IMG/VR virus record: IMGVR_UViG_3300021387_000199
Span: 1 to 64,000 of that record
DNA length: 64,000 nucleotides
Source of the DNA: a virus
Lineage: Duplodnaviria > Caudoviricetes
Strand: one strand, 5' to 3'
Positions 14,201-35,912 of the stretch are shown here, piece after piece. A program made the translations under genes and the position numbers. The notes under the pieces were generated by a model, which worked only from the letters and a program-made list of their open reading frames with translations, did no database searches and was not told where the DNA came from. Within the stretch, counting starts at the first letter, position 1. Each line of letters begins with the position of its first letter.

Positions 14201-17200
14201 TGTGATAACGCTTCTCTAAGAGTGGCCTGAACCATTGACTCACCACGTTGGAATCCCGGGGTAGTTGCGGCACCTTCGAATGTCTATTTTGACATTTTTA
14301 ATTCCTGGAAGTGTCCGGAGATACCCTTAAGGGTATTATTCTTGCTATAATCACGAGCCATATTATACGCATTGATATCCTGAACATTAATTGAATTAAT
14401 AATTCCATCCATTAACAACTGATAATCGTCAAGGGCAGTATCACCTGATTTATGCATCTATTGAATTTTGTCAGACCATGCTTTTTGCATAGTTTCAAAT
14501 GAACTTTTTGCTGACTATTTAGCTTCGTCATCTGTTCCTTTTAATGCCTTAGCATATTCGTCTGCTGACTACTGGAATCTATAATAGAAACTACCTAAGT
14601 TACCGTTAGAGACCTCTTTGCCATCATATGAGTAATTGATCCCATTACGCTCATCACTTAGTAGTCTCATGTTCAGGTATTGCATAAATGTATCTTCATG
14701 TTCAGCAATTATCCCAGAATAATATTGAGTGGTTTCATTTATCCAACTCTAAAGTTGTTTATAATTATCAGTGTCTTTAACTTCGTCATACTCTGGAATA
14801 TCTTGTAGATGCTCACCCATTTCTTTTACTATTTCGTAAATTTCCCTTGGGGTTCCAGTTACGGACAAAGACTTATCACTACCAAATACTCCATACTAAT
14901 CTATTTTCAGCCCTTTGCCTGTATAATCCTACGCCCATTTTAATATCTGCGCCATTCCACTTGAATCAGGGTCGAAATACTATGATAAAGCAACAAGGGC
15001 TTTGTTATCCTTAGTCATTGCGTCATAAGCATATTTAAAATCGCCTTTACCTTCCCCTTGTGCCCCGGCCTATGCTAAAGCATTCTTCGCATTCTCTACT
15101 TTTATTTTCTGCAATTTTTCTATTTGTTCATCCAGTGACCCGTTGACTAAATCAATTCCGCTTGCTTGTTTGCCATAAGAGTCGTTGATTTGATTCTGAA
15201 GATCTAACAACTGCGATTTTATTTGGGCGGATTCTTGCTCAGTTATATTATTTTTAGCCAGAGAATCTGAAAGCTTCGTGTAGTTATCAATCTGGGAATC
15301 TATATCTTTTACGGCGTCTTTAAAGTATCCGGCTTGCTCAGCGGCATTCTCTATGCGGGCTTGCTTTGCTTTTTGATACGCGTTATATATAGCGACCCCT
15401 AAGGAAATAACCGTCGTTGTAATAGTAGCAATACTGGGAATTAAATTAGCCCCGGAGAAAGTAGCTTTTAAAGTGGCTCCTAATCCAACAACTGGTTTTG
15501 AAGCCTATTCCGCAGCTTGACCAACTTGTTTTAATCCAGCTTCTGTTTGAGCAACATCCACTAAAACCGTATTAGCTCCGACAGATAATACGTCACGCTT
15601 CTGAGCGTTAGTCATACTTCCATATAACGGACTATTATTTAATGTATTAATCGCCGCAGCAGAATTAGTATAACCATTAAGTTGACCTTTTAATCTTGTC
15701 ACTTCCTGAGCAACAGAAGCCATACCTTGAGCCTATCTGTATCCGCTCATTAAGCCTTTTACGCCAAATATACCAGATCCAATAAATCCCAAAGTAGAAA
15801 AGCTTCCAATAGCAGAACTAATGTCGTTAAGAAGCTTCAGGAACTGTGTTCCTAAATCTATAACTCCTTTCAGTCCATCAGAACTCATAAAGTTATATGC
15901 GAATTCAGAAGCCTCATTCTTGATCTGTTGCATATGTCCTTCGACAGATTCAAGGTACTTCTGGTTTTCAATCATCGCAGATCCTTCAGAGTCAAGAGCT
16001 TCCTAATAGGCGCTCCTGAGGACATCTGGTGATTGCAGAAGACTGGCTAAGACGTTGGAACGGTTCTTACCCGCCATAGTCTACAGAAGATAGTTCTGCT
16101 GATTTGTACCGTTCTGTTTATCCTGTTCGCCAATCTATTCCCAGATATCAGAGATATCCTGAAGGATAGTATAAGTATTCTTCAGATTACCATTGGCATC
16201 TTCAATGTCTACACCCTTCATACCGTTAGAAGCTACCTTAGTAGCATTCATAATACCAGTACGAAGCTTGGAGACAGTAGTAACCATGCCTTCGGTATCC
16301 TCGCCCATATCTTCAATCTACTGTTTCTGACCCGCAAGACGAAGACTGATAATCTTCATCGCAGCACCTACGTTCTACGGATCCTGAACGACTTGGTTGG
16401 CAGCCGTTATCATACCGATTGATTCTTCGAGAGAGTTTCCTGAAGTGGTAAGAGCAGAAGCTGATCTTTGAAGAGCCTCAGAAAGACCAGAAGTACTAAT
16501 CGAAAAATCGTTACCGACTTTATTTAAAGAATCGATAATATGCGTCTGACTTACATCTTTATAAGCCTGAGTCATAGCAATCAAAGAAGTAGTTGCATCA
16601 TCAATATTATCAAACTCGGAGACATTAAACAGAATATTTGCATTAGCCGCCGACTATTTCGCCTTACCGAGCTATTGTCCAAGCCTCATAAAGTCAGCAG
16701 TACTTTGTTGAATCTGAAGAGCAGTAGTACCAATCTGCTCAGCCATATTAAAGCTTTCTTTTTGGAAATTTTTCAACCGATCAATAGATTCATCGGATAC
16801 TTTTCGCATCTCAGTAAGCGCAGAATCAAATTCAGTAATCTGAGAAATTGCCTGTTTAAATATATCAACAACCCTATAGAAGCTGACAAAAGTAGCGAGA
16901 TAAGTTGTTAAACTTCTCGCATGACTTTTCAGAGAATCAAAGAATTTGTCAGCGGAAGTTTTTGTGGTCACGAACATTGAATTCATCTGGCCAAGGGCTT
17001 CAGATTGAGCATCAAATTCCTGAGTAAGAATCTAAGTTTGTCCTTTTTTATTGGTCACACGTAAAGACGCTCTCATGTTTTTTGTGCCTGAGAAGGTAAT
17101 ATCGCCGGCTTGAGCTGTAGCACCACGGGCAGCGGCGGCGGCCAGAAGATTCTGTCTCATACGCTATTGAACCTGATCCTTGCTCATTCCTGTGAGAACA

Positions 17201-20200
17201 GCAGAAGCCTTTTCGAGAGGATTAAGAAGTTTATTTATTCTATTAGCATATTCTTCGGGTCCAATAGATTTAGAAGCAAATAGTTCATTAAGTTCCATGA
17301 CTTTTTGCTTAAGATATTCAATCTTGTCGCCTATTCCCTAAATATTTGAAGCATCTAGTGTTTCAATTCTAGACCATGCGTCCCCCATAGCTGTTCCTGG
17401 TGAGTTTATTTCAGCATTAATTTGGTCATATATTCTTCGCATTTCATTTGCTTTGTTTTCGGCTTCTTTCACCGTATTGGCTATATCATTAGATCTTCGC
17501 TGTTCTTCGTCGGCTTGGTTTTGAGTAGTGGCTTTAGCTTGTTTATATTCGCGATTTTCTAAATCAATATATTTTTCAGTGAGAGATATAGCCTCTTTCA
17601 ATTCTTGTATTTTTTTATTCTCTGCCGAAGAAAGCTCTTGTCCGGCTTTTTCTAATCCCTTACGCTTTTCTTCTAAGACCAACAGCTCACCGATACTTTT
17701 CTTATAGATTCGTATTGCATCAGTTCTTTTTAATATTGCGTCTTCGTCTGAAGTATATGTTGTCTCTTCTTTTTTTTGCTTTTGCTCAGTGCTTACTTCC
17801 GGCTTAGCACCAGCAGCTATATCAACCTTTTCTCTCGCAGCTTTAACATTTTCAGCAGATTTTTTAAGCACCGTGGCGACATCTTTAAGATTATTTGCTT
17901 GTGCAAGAAAATCTGTGAGTCGATCCATTTCCGTGGTATCGAATCCCTTAAAATCGCTAAGTGCTTCCTTCAGCGGTTTAAGTGCGTCACTAAGATTCTT
18001 AATGTTATTTCCAATGTCCTTATTAACTTTGATATTTGATAAAGAAGTAAAGATATTATTAAGAGTAGTAGCGTCTATATTTGCCCCAGATAGTTTGCTT
18101 AATGCGTCAGATAATTGTTCGAGCGGCGCTATAAGATTTTGGAGATTAGTTGAGATTGCCTTTCCTACTTTGAGCTTAGACATGGAATCTGTTAGTTTTG
18201 AAACATTTTCTATTACCACGTCATCCATAGATCCCAAACTCTTTAAAGTTCTCTTAACGGCTTTAATCTGAGTAATAAAATCCTGCAATGATTGTGCCTG
18301 GTCCTTATTTACTATAAACGGCTTAATCGCATCCCCCATAGACGAAATAGAAGTGGTATCTACCGTCGTCTTTTCACTGTATTTACTTAAATCAGACGTA
18401 GTAGACTTGACCCTGTTAGCATAATTGTATAAATTAGTTGAAGCGTTTTCGCCGACCTCATATGCTTTCAGCGGTTTTACTACTTCATTTAACTTATCAA
18501 AATTAGCGCCTGATATTTCATTCGCAGCTTCAGCGATCTGTTTAAGCGTGTCACAGAGTTCCCGCACCGTTTCTTTAATGTTGTTCGTTGAAGCGGAGAA
18601 CTGACTTTCCTGTTCCGTCATAGCTTTTCCAATTTCTTGGACAGCATTCGGGATTTGCGTAGAAATATCCTGAGCTAAAGAGGAAATCTATTGTTTTTCG
18701 GTTGCTATAGTACCCGTAACGACATCTTGTTCTGCCTGGAAAGAAGCGTTTTTGACATCTATTGCTTGAGGAATTTCTGTCGCAATAACTTGGGCCAATC
18801 CAGTCAATTCAGCTTTTTCTGCTTCGACCACGCCCGTTACGACAGCTTGTTCATGCTAAAATTCCTAATTTTTCCTTCTAATCGCCTGAATAACATTGCT
18901 TTCTATGTCGCTTGCTAACCCATTCATTGCTTCGCGTTCAGAAGATCCAGAAGAATCACCTGACGTGTCGTCTGCTTTTTGAGCTTCTCTACGGGCTTCC
19001 GCTGCTTTTTTTTCTGCTTCAGCTTCACGTTCCGCATTCTTAGCTGCTTCCTCAGCATTTACTGCGCCTTTCTAACCATTAGCATCAGTACGACTCTTCG
19101 ATTCGGCTTCAGCTTCATTGGCTTTTTTACGCGCCTCAGCCTCTTTTTCTAAGGCTTCGGCATTTTTCTATGCTGTATCAGCGGTAGAAGTATCGGGCTC
19201 TGTTTTAGCTTTAGATTCTGCTTCCGCAGCAGCAAGTTCTCGTTGGGCATCTGCTTCTTTCTTTTTGTCTTCAACAGCCTTTTCTGACAAACCATGGAGC
19301 TCTTCGTAATGAGCGATTAATCCTTCGTCGTCAAGATTATTTAAGGCTTCAATATCTTTTTCATCGGCGTCGTCACCCAAAAGATCTCTTGCCGATCCGC
19401 CTAAAGCACGAAATTCATTCCATTTCTCAATAACCGCGTCTTGTTCATCTTGAAGATGCTCGAGCTGTGATATTTCACTTTCAATAGCGCCACCATAACC
19501 GGATTCGTCCTAAGCGTCGTTATACTATTTATGAAGACTGCCAGTCCCAGTATTAGCACGTTCTCTGGTTTCTTCAATCATTCGATTTAAATCTTCTTTA
19601 AGTTCGTTTTGCTTTTCTTGTAAAGCTTTTTGGCTTTGTTCTTGTGTCTGTTCTGCCGATTCAGCTTTAGCAGCCTTGTTTTCACGAACTTTTGAAGTAT
19701 TTTCATCAAGAGCGGCATTTTCTTCACGAAGAGCGCTAAGGTATTCTTCTGATTTGACAGTAGAAGACCATTTATCTTCCATGCGTTTTTTGAGATTTTG
19801 ATCCATCATCTCAAAATAATTTTTGCTTGCTCCATATTTCTGTAGATGAGATAAATCGCCACCTAATGCCTTAAATTCAAAATAGTCATTGGATTTTTGA
19901 CCTATAAGATTTCCTTGAGATCTTAACCCCATGTCTCTCTCAGTATTTAAGGTCGCTAAAGAATCTTCGAGTTGCTTTTTGCGCCTTTCAATAGCGGCGG
20001 CTGTTTCTGCTTGAGTATCTTCTTCACTTTTTAATTCTGTTTTCTTAGCTTCAGTCGATTTCTGACTCGCCGTAGTAGATTCATCCGTTTTAGCTGCGTT
20101 TTCTTGTTTGAGTTGGTTATTTCTTTCTAACTACTGATTTTCTTCCTTTATAGCCTCAGTTTCTTCACCAATAGATTTTGCATATTCCGGTGTAGCAACT

Positions 20201-24762: not shown

Positions 24763-26403
24763 TTACACCTGATGCTCTTTAATGAAACAATCGATATTCT
24801 TCCCTTTCAGTAAAGCCTACCTCTATGCCGCTTTAGCTTTCTTCTCAAACGATCCGCAGAAAAGATAATACCGTCCACCAGAAGATTCATAGAAACAATC
24901 AAGTCCGGTCATATTCTTGATCTCTCGAACCTTGTTCTCTCTACTCGCCACAGTAGTAAAGGCTCCAACCTGAACACGATAAACAGTTCGTTTTCCAGAA
25001 GGAGCGGGAGCAGGAACAGGAACTGGAGAGGGAGTAGGAACAACCGGAATCACAGAATCTCCGCCTTCCTGAACCAACTTAAATGCCACCTTATCAAAAC
25101 GTGTCAAATCATTTTCTTTGATAATTCGCATATTATTGGTTATATAGGTCACACCCGTCGCATAGCCATTATTACGAATAGTAGTAATAACTTTCTCAGG
25201 ATCCGTCATACCTACCACTTCACGATATTTATACTGGGTTGCTGTCTTTTTGACATGCGTCAAAAACAGTTCGTAATCCAATATAGAATATGCATAATTT
25301 GGGAAAACCCTGAACCAGTCAGTAATAGTTGTAGGAACTCCGTTGTAGACTTCAGGAGTTCTCTTCCTAAACTTCTCGCCATTCCACACTGTCTGATCCT
25401 GCCATGTGCTATTGATGAGGTCTGCCTTTTGTCCGATCAGATTAGACCTTTTCGTTAATTCGATGGCATCAGACGCAATTCCGTAACCATTCTATAAACA
25501 GGCTTGGGCAATAACGACAGACGGAAGTATAAGTGTATACGGATACAGCTTTACAGCGATCTCAGACACCTTATTGATATAATCTTCTTTCGAACTCGGA
25601 AGTCCTTTATAATCTGGGAGAGTAGAGAGAAGAGCTAAGCTCTTAGCCTTCGTCTGATTGGCAATGGCAGCCTCAACAGGCGGAAGTCCTTTGGATGTGT
25701 ACAGAGCCTTCCCTGAAAGGTCAAATACAGTATAGCCGGGGTTTTCATCGGCTTTTTCTACGGCTTTGTCGTACTTGATATAAGCGCCGAGCTGCGTTTT
25801 TTCATTATCCCAAGTAAGGCGGACTTTATACTTAATTTCTTCTACCTGACCGCCAATTCTTTTCTTAAAATCAGCCCACTTGCTCTCATCCCCGGAATCC
25901 TTATTCCACCCGATCACGCCCGGGCACGGTTTCCCGTTAACATCGTAATGCCGGATCACATGCTCCGCATCGATCCCATACAGCTGCATCAGATACTTCA
26001 CAGCCTCTATGGCCTTCTCCAGCACTCTATCCGTAAAGTAATACGCCGGATCATTCGGAACCGTAATCTTCCCCTTCGTGTTCCCGCTGCAGATCTCAAT
26101 GCTGACACAGTTGGAATTCTTTGCCACTCCAAACAGCCTTCCGCCCTGTGTATTATATCTTGGTCCGCCAACCGCATGGCAATACCGGTTTTTGGGATCC
26201 GGGTTATACTGCACAAAAGTCTCCTCATCTACAATATAGTCGGCAGACCCGCCGGCATTCGGGTTGGCAAACCATGAGGCGCACCCTGAAGCGGATCCCT
26301 TTTTGCAGCTCACCCCGGCAGTATAATGGACCGCCAGATAAAGAATCTGTCTCCCCGGAGCGGAAGTGGTATTCGCCGTTCCAATTTGTTTTATAATATT
26401 CAT
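24763..26403 (-). CDS. Endolysin: Amidase_2 + GH73 glucosaminidase + SPOR domain, 546 aa
   Basis: HYTAG...SIEIC...HYDVNGKPCP amidase motifs; AQACL*NGYG...GYAT GH73 motifs; YRVQVGAF SPOR; three TAGs. Confidence 0.88.
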
Positions 26404-26415
26404 TAAGACCCCTCC

Positions 26416-26826
26416 TTAAGCTGACACATCAACCGTAAGCTTAGTCTCTCTTACCAAAGCTTCAATCTGTGCATTGATATACGCATCGAAATCATTGTAC
26501 AGAACCACGATGGCATTTTTCGAAGCGCTAGAAATCAACTCTTTAGCCCGAGCAATTGCCATATTCTTCGCAGTTTCCTGAGCTTCAGGCGTAAACTTAC
26601 CGGCCTTCTTCATAGCGTCTACATACGTCTGGCTAACACTGAGAACGATAGAAGCGATGATATCATTCGCGTCTTCTACGTATTTTCGAAGTGTTTCATT
26701 TTCAGTCTTCTCGGCCAGCTCTTTTGTTTTAGTGTTTAGAAAAACTACCAGATATCTCACTACAATCGGCAGTATGAATACGATCAGTGCGTATAAAATC
26801 TCGTGTAAAGCAGTTTGCCAATCCAT
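26416..26826 (-). CDS. Holin-like membrane protein
   Basis: N-terminal TM helix, VSQTYVDAMKKAGKF motif, adjacent to endolysin. Confidence 0.75.
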   Translation of the reverse strand: MDWQTALHEILYALIVFILPIVVRYLVVFLNTKTKELAEKTENETLRKYVEDANDIIASIVLSVSQTYVDAMKKAGKFTPEAQETAKNMAIARAKELISSASKNAIVVLYNDFDAYINAQIEALVRETKLTVDVSA

Positions 26827-26838
26827 ACCTTATCCTCC

Positions 26839-27246
26839 TTATCCCGGGAAATCTTCTCCGGACTCATCCTGATTGGAAAATCCTTCGTCGTCATCATATT
26901 GAGAGTTTTCTCTCATAGCTGTCTAAAATGTAATTCCTCCTGCAACATTCTCCCTCGCAGACTTATCAAAATACTTCCACACAATGGGTATCATAGCTGC
27001 CGGGATTCCTATCAAAACATAAAGAGACGAAAAGTCCCCATATTTCCACATGATTGCTTGAGCAAAAATGACGATCTGAAACATTATTGCCATCATTATC
27101 CACAAAGCCAGTTTGCTCGTGGTTATTTTCTTCTTCTTATATTTTTTCCTTTCTTCCTTGAGCTTCTAAACTTTTAGCTTAAATTCATTTTCTCTTTTTA
27201 TTTTCTGAAGCCTCCGTTCATACTCACGGTCGCTAATATAGCGCAT
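26839..27246 (-). CDS. Two-TM membrane protein (holin/antiholin-like), 135 aa
   Basis: ATG after GGAGGTG; two hydrophobic segments; ENVAGGITF*TAM; TAA stop. Confidence 0.7.
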
Positions 27247-27260
27247 TGGACACACCTCCC

Positions 27261-33703: not shown

Positions 33704-34838
33704 CCTTCTGTTTAACTTATATTATTCCCTATTAATAAACTTCCAATGATAACCACCACAAGTATGACGTTCACCTTTACACACCTTAAGAATACAACTG
33801 CCGTCCAGAGATAATTCTTTTCCAGCCGCCGTAGCGTCCTGATATGTCTTTCCTGATTCCACGCAAAGAACAGGAGTAGTATTTCTTCTCCAAGAAACTG
33901 TGCCCATTTTCTTCTCGCTCATTTTCCTTTTGGATTCTTCAGTGTGGTGTCTGCCATACATTCCATTATTTTCACCCATTATCTTCGCTTTTATAGAGGG
34001 ATCAGCCCATTGTTTAAGAGCATTTTCGCTCTGTATTTTCCTTCTATTAGGATCGGAATAGGTCTTTTTAATTGACACACTCATCTTATTCTTAAGTTCA
34101 TCAGAAAAAGAGTTGAAATCCTGACCTCCAGATTTAAGGTTGTATCCTTTATCTCTATCCAATGTGCCATATTTCTCAATGTAATATCTTTCTTTATCAT
34201 TGAGCTATGTTTCGCCACATTCTTCTAAGATATAAAATAAGAACATTTCCTATCCATACTTTATCCACGACTTCTGAAGATAATCGTTATGATGTAAACC
34301 CATATTTAATTCGGAGATGTGTCTTCTCCATCGATCAGCTATGTTTGTAGACTGACCAATATACTTTTTATTATTTACAGCATTTTCAATACAATATATG
34401 CCGCTAATCACTTTTTCCATATTAATCACTTTCTTTATTAGGGAATAATTTTATAGGGTCGCTACACCCCGTCGAGTTAATAACTCCACAAGCTTTTACT
34501 TGTGAGTAGACTATATCTTCCTCTATAAAAGAGGCGCACCATTTCCGATTAAGGGAATTTCACCCGCCCGCTTGGGCCGTACTCCTGTTGTGGTTTCCCA
34601 CCTATGGGATAGTCGTTGAACCTTCCTCTATTCGAGGCTTGGCTGCTGATTTCCTATTCTCAAAAGCACTTAGGATTTAACCTTATGCTATCCAACTGAT
34701 TCTTTCTACTTTCGTAACCATCACACTTAGGCATATTTCATCCTTATGTTGTGGTTCAGTTGGCTTTAAGGGTTTCCAGCAGTTAAATGCGTATTTTTTC
34801 ATGCCGCTCTTGCGACACGGACGCTATTAGACAAGTTA
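33704..34838 (-). mobile_element. Group I intron (IA-like) in major capsid gene
   Basis: Exon ends in U and intron ends in G; P1 GACGU/GCGUC with U.G pair; P10 UCUAAUA/UGUUAGA; core P (AACUGCUGGAAA), Q (AAUCAGCAG), R (UCAACGACUA) and S (AAGAUAUAGUC) elements. Confidence 0.92.
33722..34420 (-). CDS. GIY-YIG homing endonuclease with NUMOD3/NUMOD1-type repeats, 232 aa
   Basis: SGIYCIEN...KKYIGQS; HHTEESKRKMS; CGGYHWK; TAGs at 34250 and 34205. Confidence 0.9.
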
Positions 34839-35288: not shown

Positions 35289-35912
35289 TTAGATCTGTAC
35301 ATTCTGAATGCACTGGATCCTGACAATGGTCGTAAGACCAATATTGTCATAAGCGATAGAATGAACCTTACCAATGAAACCATTGGTAGCGCCAGTTTCT
35401 CCAGCCATCTTCGGAGCAGTAGCGGTGGAAGCAACAGCAACCCACATTCCAGTTCCGTCCCAAGTTACATAGTTACCAACCTTGATGTTCGCCTTGGAAG
35501 CATCGGTAAACTGATAATCCGCAACAGCAAAGACCTCATGAGAATCATTGAGAACTTCATAAGCCTTAGACAGACGACCAGCCTTATTCGTGAACTTGGA
35601 CGGAATCTCGTCAGAAGCCACGCGGGCATCCTTCACGACTGCCGGGGTTCCGATGACAGCAATCTTATCACCAACACCAGCGATCTTCGCATAAACCTCC
35701 TGGAGGCCGTTGCCGGTGAAATCCTCAATCTTAACGGCAACACCGTTATCCACTTCAATCGGATCCTTTGTAGTTACAGCGTCCTGACCTTCGCCAGTGG
35801 TATGCGCTACATAAACCAGAGCGTCGTAGATTCTTCCTACGTCTGTGGCCTTAAGCCTAGAACTTTCGAAAATTCCATGGCGGCCATTAGCCTGACTATT
35901 TACATAAGCCAT
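35289..35912 (-). CDS. Capsid decoration/structural protein
   Basis: Intact 207-aa ORF between scaffold and capsid genes. Confidence 0.65.
   Translation of the reverse strand: MAYVNSQANGRHGIFESSRLKATDVGRIYDALVYVAHTTGEGQDAVTTKDPIEVDNGVAVKIEDFTGNGLQEVYAKIAGVGDKIAVIGTPAVVKDARVASDEIPSKFTNKAGRLSKAYEVLNDSHEVFAVADYQFTDASKANIKVGNYVTWDGTGMWVAVASTATAPKMAGETGATNGFIGKVHSIAYDNIGLTTIVRIQCIQNVQI

Follow-up and report, generated by a model that had tools for sequence, protein, structure and literature searches.

A TAG codon, probably read as glutamate, at the catalytic position of a gut phage endolysin

Stop-codon recoding, as described in phages, makes TAG mean Gln, or TGA mean Trp or Gly. In the nuclear codes 30 and 31 (peritrich ciliates, Blastocrithidia) UAG can mean Glu, and UAA is reassigned too. 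Recoding of TAG in late genes together with a phage tRNA with a CUA anticodon, tRNA(CUA), is already known, with Gln as the meaning; the gut phages that use this code, translation table 15, include the crAss-like, Lak, Garnet, Topaz and phAss-1 phages (10.1101/2021.08.26.457843; PMC9523058, Peters et al.). We report here on the endolysin gene of a ruminant gut phage (Caudoviricetes), IMG/VR record IMGVR_UViG_3300021387_000199, a single contig of 134,294 bp that is estimated to be 83% complete; the stretch analysed, hereafter the window, is its first 64 kb (64,000 nucleotides). The gene contains three in-frame TAGs, the first of which, codon 304, falls on the catalytic glutamate of a GH73 glucosaminidase domain. 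Like the table-15 gut phages, this phage stems from an animal gut, encodes a tRNA(CUA) and confines TAG to its late structural and lysis genes, the early and replication genes being almost free of it; unlike them, it appears to use TAG for Glu, not Gln. It would share this meaning of UAG with codes 30 and 31, which are eukaryotic and genome-wide, whereas here the code is that of a virus, UAG alone is concerned, and only in one temporal gene class. A literature search found no paper reporting TAG as Glu in a phage. It is probable, in our view, that TAG means Glu in the late genes and that codon 304 is an ordinary Glu codon falling on the GH73 general acid.

The evidence on the code comes from the genome as a whole. 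Twenty-five minus-strand late genes hold 172 in-frame TAGs, and all 25 end in TAA or TGA; the terminase gene has 10, the gene of a phrog_8308 protein 14 and a single frame of 6811 codons 83. This last frame (window 2248-22683, minus strand, TAA end) codes for a giant protein of the late class, whose position is that of a tail or tape-measure-like protein. Sixteen large plus-strand early genes have a single TAG among their 7718 codons. In 111 related IMG/VR loci we noted which codon faces each TAG, using only neighbourhoods that align well. Over distinct contexts, Glu stood opposite the TAGs of this phage 137 times, Asp 45 times and Gln 10 times, and Glu was the majority residue at 36 of 56 sites (Gln at 3). 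Restricting the comparison to standard-code relatives, that is, those without in-frame TAG, left 37 sites, at which the residues opposite TAG were E (0.47), D (0.245), K (0.075) and Q (0.022); at the phage's own GAA/GAG sites the relatives have E at 0.49, and at its own CAA/CAG sites Q at 0.44. At the 37 sites Glu was the meaning of highest likelihood, followed by Asp (12.5 log-likelihood units lower) and Gln (35.6 lower). TAG sites are conserved like GAA/GAG sites (47% versus 49% E in relatives), so important Glu positions are not spared TAG.

The meaning Gln, as in table 15, would make of the lysin an E304Q protein in which a dead GH73 domain serves as a glycan-binding module only and the amidase does the cutting. 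Recoded phages have been reported to reassign TAG to Gln, and so does the sister phage L005 (64% protein identity), whose TAGs meet Q in this phage at 22 sites and E at 3; by its sequence L005 is a table-15 phage, and the method is internally validated by having recovered Gln for it. In L005, however, the residue opposite the TAGs of the present phage is Glu at 24 sites and never Gln, and both this tally and the 2% of Q opposite TAG make the Gln meaning very improbable here. In another relative, a single contig represented by loci L001, L082 and L085, at least 21 TAG sites are shared with this phage, and 13 of this phage's TAGs are Glu codons there.

Under the standard code, TAG would be a stop, the lysin truncated or a pseudogene, a 303-amino-acid amidase its real product, and the GH73 and SPOR regions a decaying remnant. 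Table 11 does predict exactly this open reading frame (ORF; 25492..26403), and GAG to TAG is a one-base change. Termination would indeed give, as had been read from the sequence alone, an amidase-only protein of 303 residues that lacks the SPOR domain; according to table 11 and Pfam it would lack the GH73 active site as well. Yet the 172 in-frame TAGs lie in otherwise intact late genes, none of which ends in TAG, the phage encodes a tRNA(CUA), and the downstream GH73 and SPOR regions score as intact domains and are 99% conserved in independent samples, so that we find the standard code scarcely credible for these genes. Internal restart, yielding a separate GH73-SPOR protein, was rejected since the next table 11 start (25389) is past the catalytic codon.

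When the TAGs are read through, the three domains of the endolysin (Amidase_2, GH73 and SPOR in Pfam) share one frame. The GH73 domain matches PF01832 (Glucosaminidase) at 59.3 bits, against a cut-off of 30.2, with X placed at codon 304. Alignments with PDB sequences by phmmer put codon 304 opposite the E of AQAALE(T/S)GWG in FlgJ (2ZYC, 3VWO, 5DN5); its equivalents are FlgJ E185/E184, AtlA E212 and Auto E122, the invariant general-acid Glu, and entry 3K3T, which has Ala in this column, is by its PDB title an E185A mutant. Among 45 homologous loci read at the DNA level, the column holds GAA in 22 and GAG in 23, with CAA or CAG in none, a further point against Gln; among 79 database protein homologs it holds E in 72 and Q in 7. 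The sequence-only reading had placed the first TAG at the catalytic Glu of GH73, and these alignments bear it out. The Gln form of this residue has been studied in AtlA, where E212Q is a loss-of-function mutant with one of the most pronounced septum-cleavage defects (PMC4752226, PMC9108991). In the present lysin the GH73 active site is otherwise strongly conserved, which also speaks against a dead module: E351, the candidate second catalytic Glu, aligns with the VEYENG segment of FlgJ (the carboxylate of AtlA E246 and FlgJ E223/E224) and is at least 90% conserved, and Y414 and 30 invariant columns are kept.

An AlphaFold2 model built with TAG as Glu had a mean predicted local distance difference test score (pLDDT) of 86.8, with 90-98 through the GH73 domain. 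Residue 304 lies in its helix 294-308 (pLDDT block 93), and strands 344-353 and 356-365 form the hairpin that bears E351. Foldseek matched this module, an alpha-lobe with a beta-hairpin, to AtlA 7QFU (template modelling (TM) score 0.81, root-mean-square deviation 2.9) and, with probability 1.00, to 3FI7 (Auto), 5DN5 and 3VWO (FlgJ). The domain thus resembles AtlA of E. faecalis (7QFU), Auto of L. monocytogenes (3FI7) and FlgJ (2ZYC/5DN5) in its GH73 fold (TM score 0.73-0.81), the central-helix position of the general acid, the second Glu on a beta-hairpin and the conserved GYAT motif. It differs from them in that the general-acid Glu is a TAG, in an identity to the solved members of only 20-24%, and in its fusion partners, Amidase_2 on the N-terminal and SPOR on the C-terminal side. 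Scans for the GH73 motif with TAG at the catalytic codon gave no match among viral contigs and genome contigs, and metagenome and IMG/VR scans yielded no lysin relative above 62% identity. If TAG is Glu, as the genome-wide tally strongly supports, the domain would possess its general acid. The catalytic TAG had been taken from the sequence alone as strong evidence for the code, which is more than a single site can bear; codon 304 agrees, on sequence grounds, with a genome-wide code that was established independently of it.

With Glu at TAG, translation would give a full-length lysin of 546 amino acids, composed of Amidase_2, a GH73 N-acetylglucosaminidase and a SPOR wall-binding domain, in which E304 (from TAG) and E351 (from GAA) would form the GH73 catalytic pair; this lysin would exit through the adjacent holin. 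We infer that Glu is inserted and that read-through is efficient, TAG being decoded by the phage tRNA(CUA), which is encoded in a plus-strand module and presumably charged by the host. Glutamyl- and glutaminyl-tRNA synthetases (GluRS, GlnRS) and a release factor were sought in the record, at its estimated 83% completeness, and not found; because the record is without these synthetases, a host enzyme would have to charge the tRNA. The D-arm motif TCTAG.GG..AGGA was found, among 195 unique phage tRNAs, in 8 of 17 tRNA-Glu(UUC) and in this tRNA(CUA), and in no others. Beside its tRNA-Glu-like D-arm, the tRNA(CUA) has a variable loop of 4 nucleotides (nt). That of the TAG=Gln sister (L005:7931-8022; also in L157 and L163) measures 92 nt and has a long extra arm. 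Close relatives therefore use structurally unrelated suppressors for different TAG meanings. It is tempting to speculate that a non-discriminating GluRS in a Firmicute host devoid of GlnRS charges these tRNAs, and that the tRNA body decides whether GatCAB converts Glu to Gln; such a route would explain why sister phages differ in the meaning of TAG.

Several observations weigh against codon 304 as an ordinary Glu codon. The lead of Glu over Asp is only 12.5 log-likelihood units, and on the sequence data TAG may be read as a Glu/Gln mixture or cause partial termination. Overall identity assigns the tRNA(CUA) to no isotype, the nearest classes all being at about 0.5 among the 195 phage tRNAs, and its anticodon loop, CCCUAAC, has an unusual C33; position 33 of tRNAs is almost always U. 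A TAG at codon 304 is deduced in seven clusters, those at 527 and 529 only in the closest three, and this deeper retention could hint at selection. Lastly, Q occupies column 304 in the nearest database homologs, P0002-P0008 (79-99% identical over GH73), three of which, P0002-P0004, have it at 527 and 529 as well.

This Q would be as expected were TAG to mean Gln, but it is very probably a table-15 mistranslation of TAG. Database protein P0013 is, letter for letter, the L113/L114 ORF translated with TAG as Gln, and 8 of its Q are TAG codons, an instance of the translation convention at work; the Q proteins have Q at other Glu-dominated columns too (189, 216 and 315). In four other studies, Logan contigs span the GH73 core, with an identity of about 99%. 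The contig of run X3, over 25007-25631, has six differences in all, and as none is at 25492-25494 the TAG is present there; its upstream continuation encodes NQTKEKSIA, the variant of P0002-P0005. We limit the claim of a TAG to X3 and do not count runs X4, X7 and X10, whose differences are accounted for in part only, and the TAG behind P0005-P0008 is read back from the protein Q, the X3 contig alone being read as DNA. A Gln common among homologs was what, according to the sequence-only reading, would speak against a catalytic Glu at this position. Such a Gln does seem to be present in the protein database (7 of 79), but it is found at the DNA level in 0 of 45 and is very probably an artefact.

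A TAG on a catalytic residue raises the matter of a lysis-timing switch, which had also been proposed from the sequence alone. In its programmed form, the TAG at codon 304 would be selected, and the level of the suppressor tRNA would tune the ratio of amidase-only to full enzyme and with it the strength or timing of lysis. The TAG does lie between a complete amidase and the GH73 active site, so that both products would be folded units; it is kept in X3, an independent sample, and by deduction in seven clusters whose GH73 identity reaches as low as 79%, a deeper retention than at 527 and 529. Recoding has moreover been proposed as a gate on lysis genes (Borges et al., 10.1101/2021.08.26.457843). 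Against this, TAG makes up 172 of the 1357 Glu-type codons of the late genes (12.7%) and 3 of 31 in the lysin, and its share in the lysis cassette (5/55) is not enriched over that in the other late genes (167/1302; Fisher p=0.54). The holin gene is free of TAG, and TAG positions are not biased towards the 5' end (Kolmogorov-Smirnov p=0.14). Codon 304 is GAA in L001, the sole TAG=Glu relative with readable lysin DNA, and likewise GAA in the TAG=Gln sister L005. The seven clusters are closely related and do not count as independent events. The whole amidase domain is encoded ahead of the TAG, which therefore cannot prevent a wall hydrolase from being made. A gene with 83 TAGs in the same module would need some 97-99% read-through at each, and because read-through must then be near-complete, lysin chains ending at codon 304 would be few, perhaps 1-3%, a minor product during late-gene synthesis. 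We consequently regard a programmed two-product lysin as unlikely.

Any one Glu has a probability of about 0.13 of being TAG, and for at least one of the two catalytic Glu the figure is about 0.24. The best explanation of the placement is chance (about 1 in 8) together with descent in a small clade, rather than selection for a switch. In canonical holin-endolysin lysis, the timing element is the holin. The lysis genes of this phage are not richer in the recoded stop than its other late genes, unlike in the crAss-like and Agate cases (10.1101/2021.08.26.457843), where the lysis cassette is preferentially recoded. A general gate on all late genes, in line with the proposal of Borges et al. and not specific to this site, is plausible. 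A related and similarly doubtful idea is that codon 304 is conditional, giving an amidase-only enzyme while the suppressor tRNA is scarce and a dual-activity, SPOR-targeted enzyme after the change of code is complete. Were this true, the chemistry of an enzyme, and not just its amount, would be set by the code state of the cell, and the footprint would be the retention of TAG in seven clusters, variable N-terminal modules and a constant GH73 core.

Returning to the lysin as an ordinary product of the probable Glu code, its domains, the PHROG families matched by its product (endolysin/amidase) and the adjoining holin on the same strand identify it as the endolysin of a holin-endolysin cassette (Table 1). 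The Amidase_2 domain (PF01510) scores 50.3 bits (cut-off 26) and has the fold of the PlyL/XlyA type of zinc amidases (XlyA 3RDR, PlyL 1YB0; TM score 0.74-0.78 in Foldseek), with H26, H152 and C160 present in the sequence as candidate Zn ligands. The SPOR domain (PF05036) scores 29.8 bits (cut-off 21) and has the fold of CwlC 1X60 (TM score 0.85). The holin has a single N-terminal transmembrane segment, hydrophobic at about residues 4-34. The small protein encoded upstream of it has no PHROG match and is possibly a second membrane protein of the lysis cassette. Staphylococcal autolysins of the Atl type and phage endolysins with two catalytic domains combine two modules that cut different peptidoglycan bonds with a wall-binding module. 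The present lysin likewise has two catalytic modules and a wall binder in one polypeptide; in domain order and in its SPOR binding module it differs from these enzymes. Relatives have a near-constant core of middle domain and GH73 (186-445), around which SH3, NlpC/P60 or extra repeat modules are inserted, and exchange the N-terminal amidase type (1-185). Contig break points in four metagenomes (25007, 25631 and 25798) are a further sign of this shuffling of modules.

Table 1. Features of the endolysin locus, in window coordinates unless stated otherwise
Feature	Position	Strand	Remarks
Endolysin gene	24763..26403	-	ATG at 26403, TAA at 24763-24765; 546 sense codons with TAG read through
Amidase_2 (N-acetylmuramoyl-L-alanine amidase) domain	25918..26355	-	residues 17-162; E 3.8e-13; 0 TAG
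GH73 glucosaminidase domain	25105..25551	-	residues 285-433; E 7.8e-16; first TAG inside
TAG codon 304	25492..25494	-	GH73 general-acid Glu column; motif AQACL-TAG-NGYG
GAA codon 351	25351..25353	-	candidate second catalytic Glu; beta-hairpin, TPEVYNG
SPOR peptidoglycan-binding domain	24778..24987	-	residues 473-542; E 7.9e-7
TAG codon 527	24823..24825	-	last SPOR helix; variable column, GAA in L001 and L115, CAA, AAG or TCG in others
TAG codon 529	24817..24819	-	last SPOR helix; variable column, V/A in most homologs
Holin	26416..26826	-	phrog_13712, E 7.6e-28; 12 bases upstream of lysin start; 0 TAG
Small protein upstream of holin	26839..27255	-	two predicted transmembrane segments; 2 TAGs
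tRNA(CUA)	genome 118774-118846 (L167:10775-10847), outside window	+	73 nt, CUA anticodon

The regions close to the tRNA(CUA) gene (genome 114326-117749 and 122854-126391; L167:6327-9747 and 14855-18389) encode an anaerobic ribonucleotide reductase (NrdD) with its activase, a formate/nitrite-transporter-like protein, a kinase-phosphatase-RNA ligase fusion of the tRNA-repair type and a tyrosine integrase. This neighbourhood suggests an anaerobic host, tRNA repair and possibly a temperate life style. Two early ORFs outside the window (genome 76064-76735 and 85963-86553, both plus strand) have a TAG 5-6 codons ahead of their TAA or TGA, and TAG may still terminate early genes, the nearby second stop being a back-up for the onset of suppression. 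Within the window, an array of seven tRNA-like genes (52428-53607, minus strand), most of them with the acceptor stem CGGAACG/CGUUCCG, includes several whose anticodon-loop regions have 4, 6 or 50 nt, and which for this reason cannot decode normally; one of the array (53201-53270) carries CUA within a sealed 4-nt loop. A group I intron (34487-34824, minus strand; Rfam RF00028, 58.8 bits) adjoins a GIY-YIG/NUMOD homing endonuclease gene with 2 TAGs (33722-34429, minus strand), and probably interrupts a late gene, with one flanking ORF at 35289-35912 and others downstream.

Taken by itself, the lysin is a modular GH73/amidase/SPOR endolysin of an ordinary kind; its value is that, of all single sites, it offers the one at which the code is most easily assayed. 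It is the cleanest experimental handle on TAG as Glu, for Glu and Gln predict opposite enzyme phenotypes, and a single tryptic peptide tells the two apart by mass. There is also a consequence for annotation, as table 15 would put a false inactivating substitution into the catalytic centre. At least seven public lysin clusters very probably carry such a false E-to-Q change and would look inactive in endolysin mining; under table 15, such phages would have all their TAG-encoded Glu wrongly rendered. With TAG as Glu, phage recoding would gain a new natural variant, whose occurrence beside a TAG=Gln sister at 64% protein identity means that the meaning of the codon has apparently diverged between close relatives.
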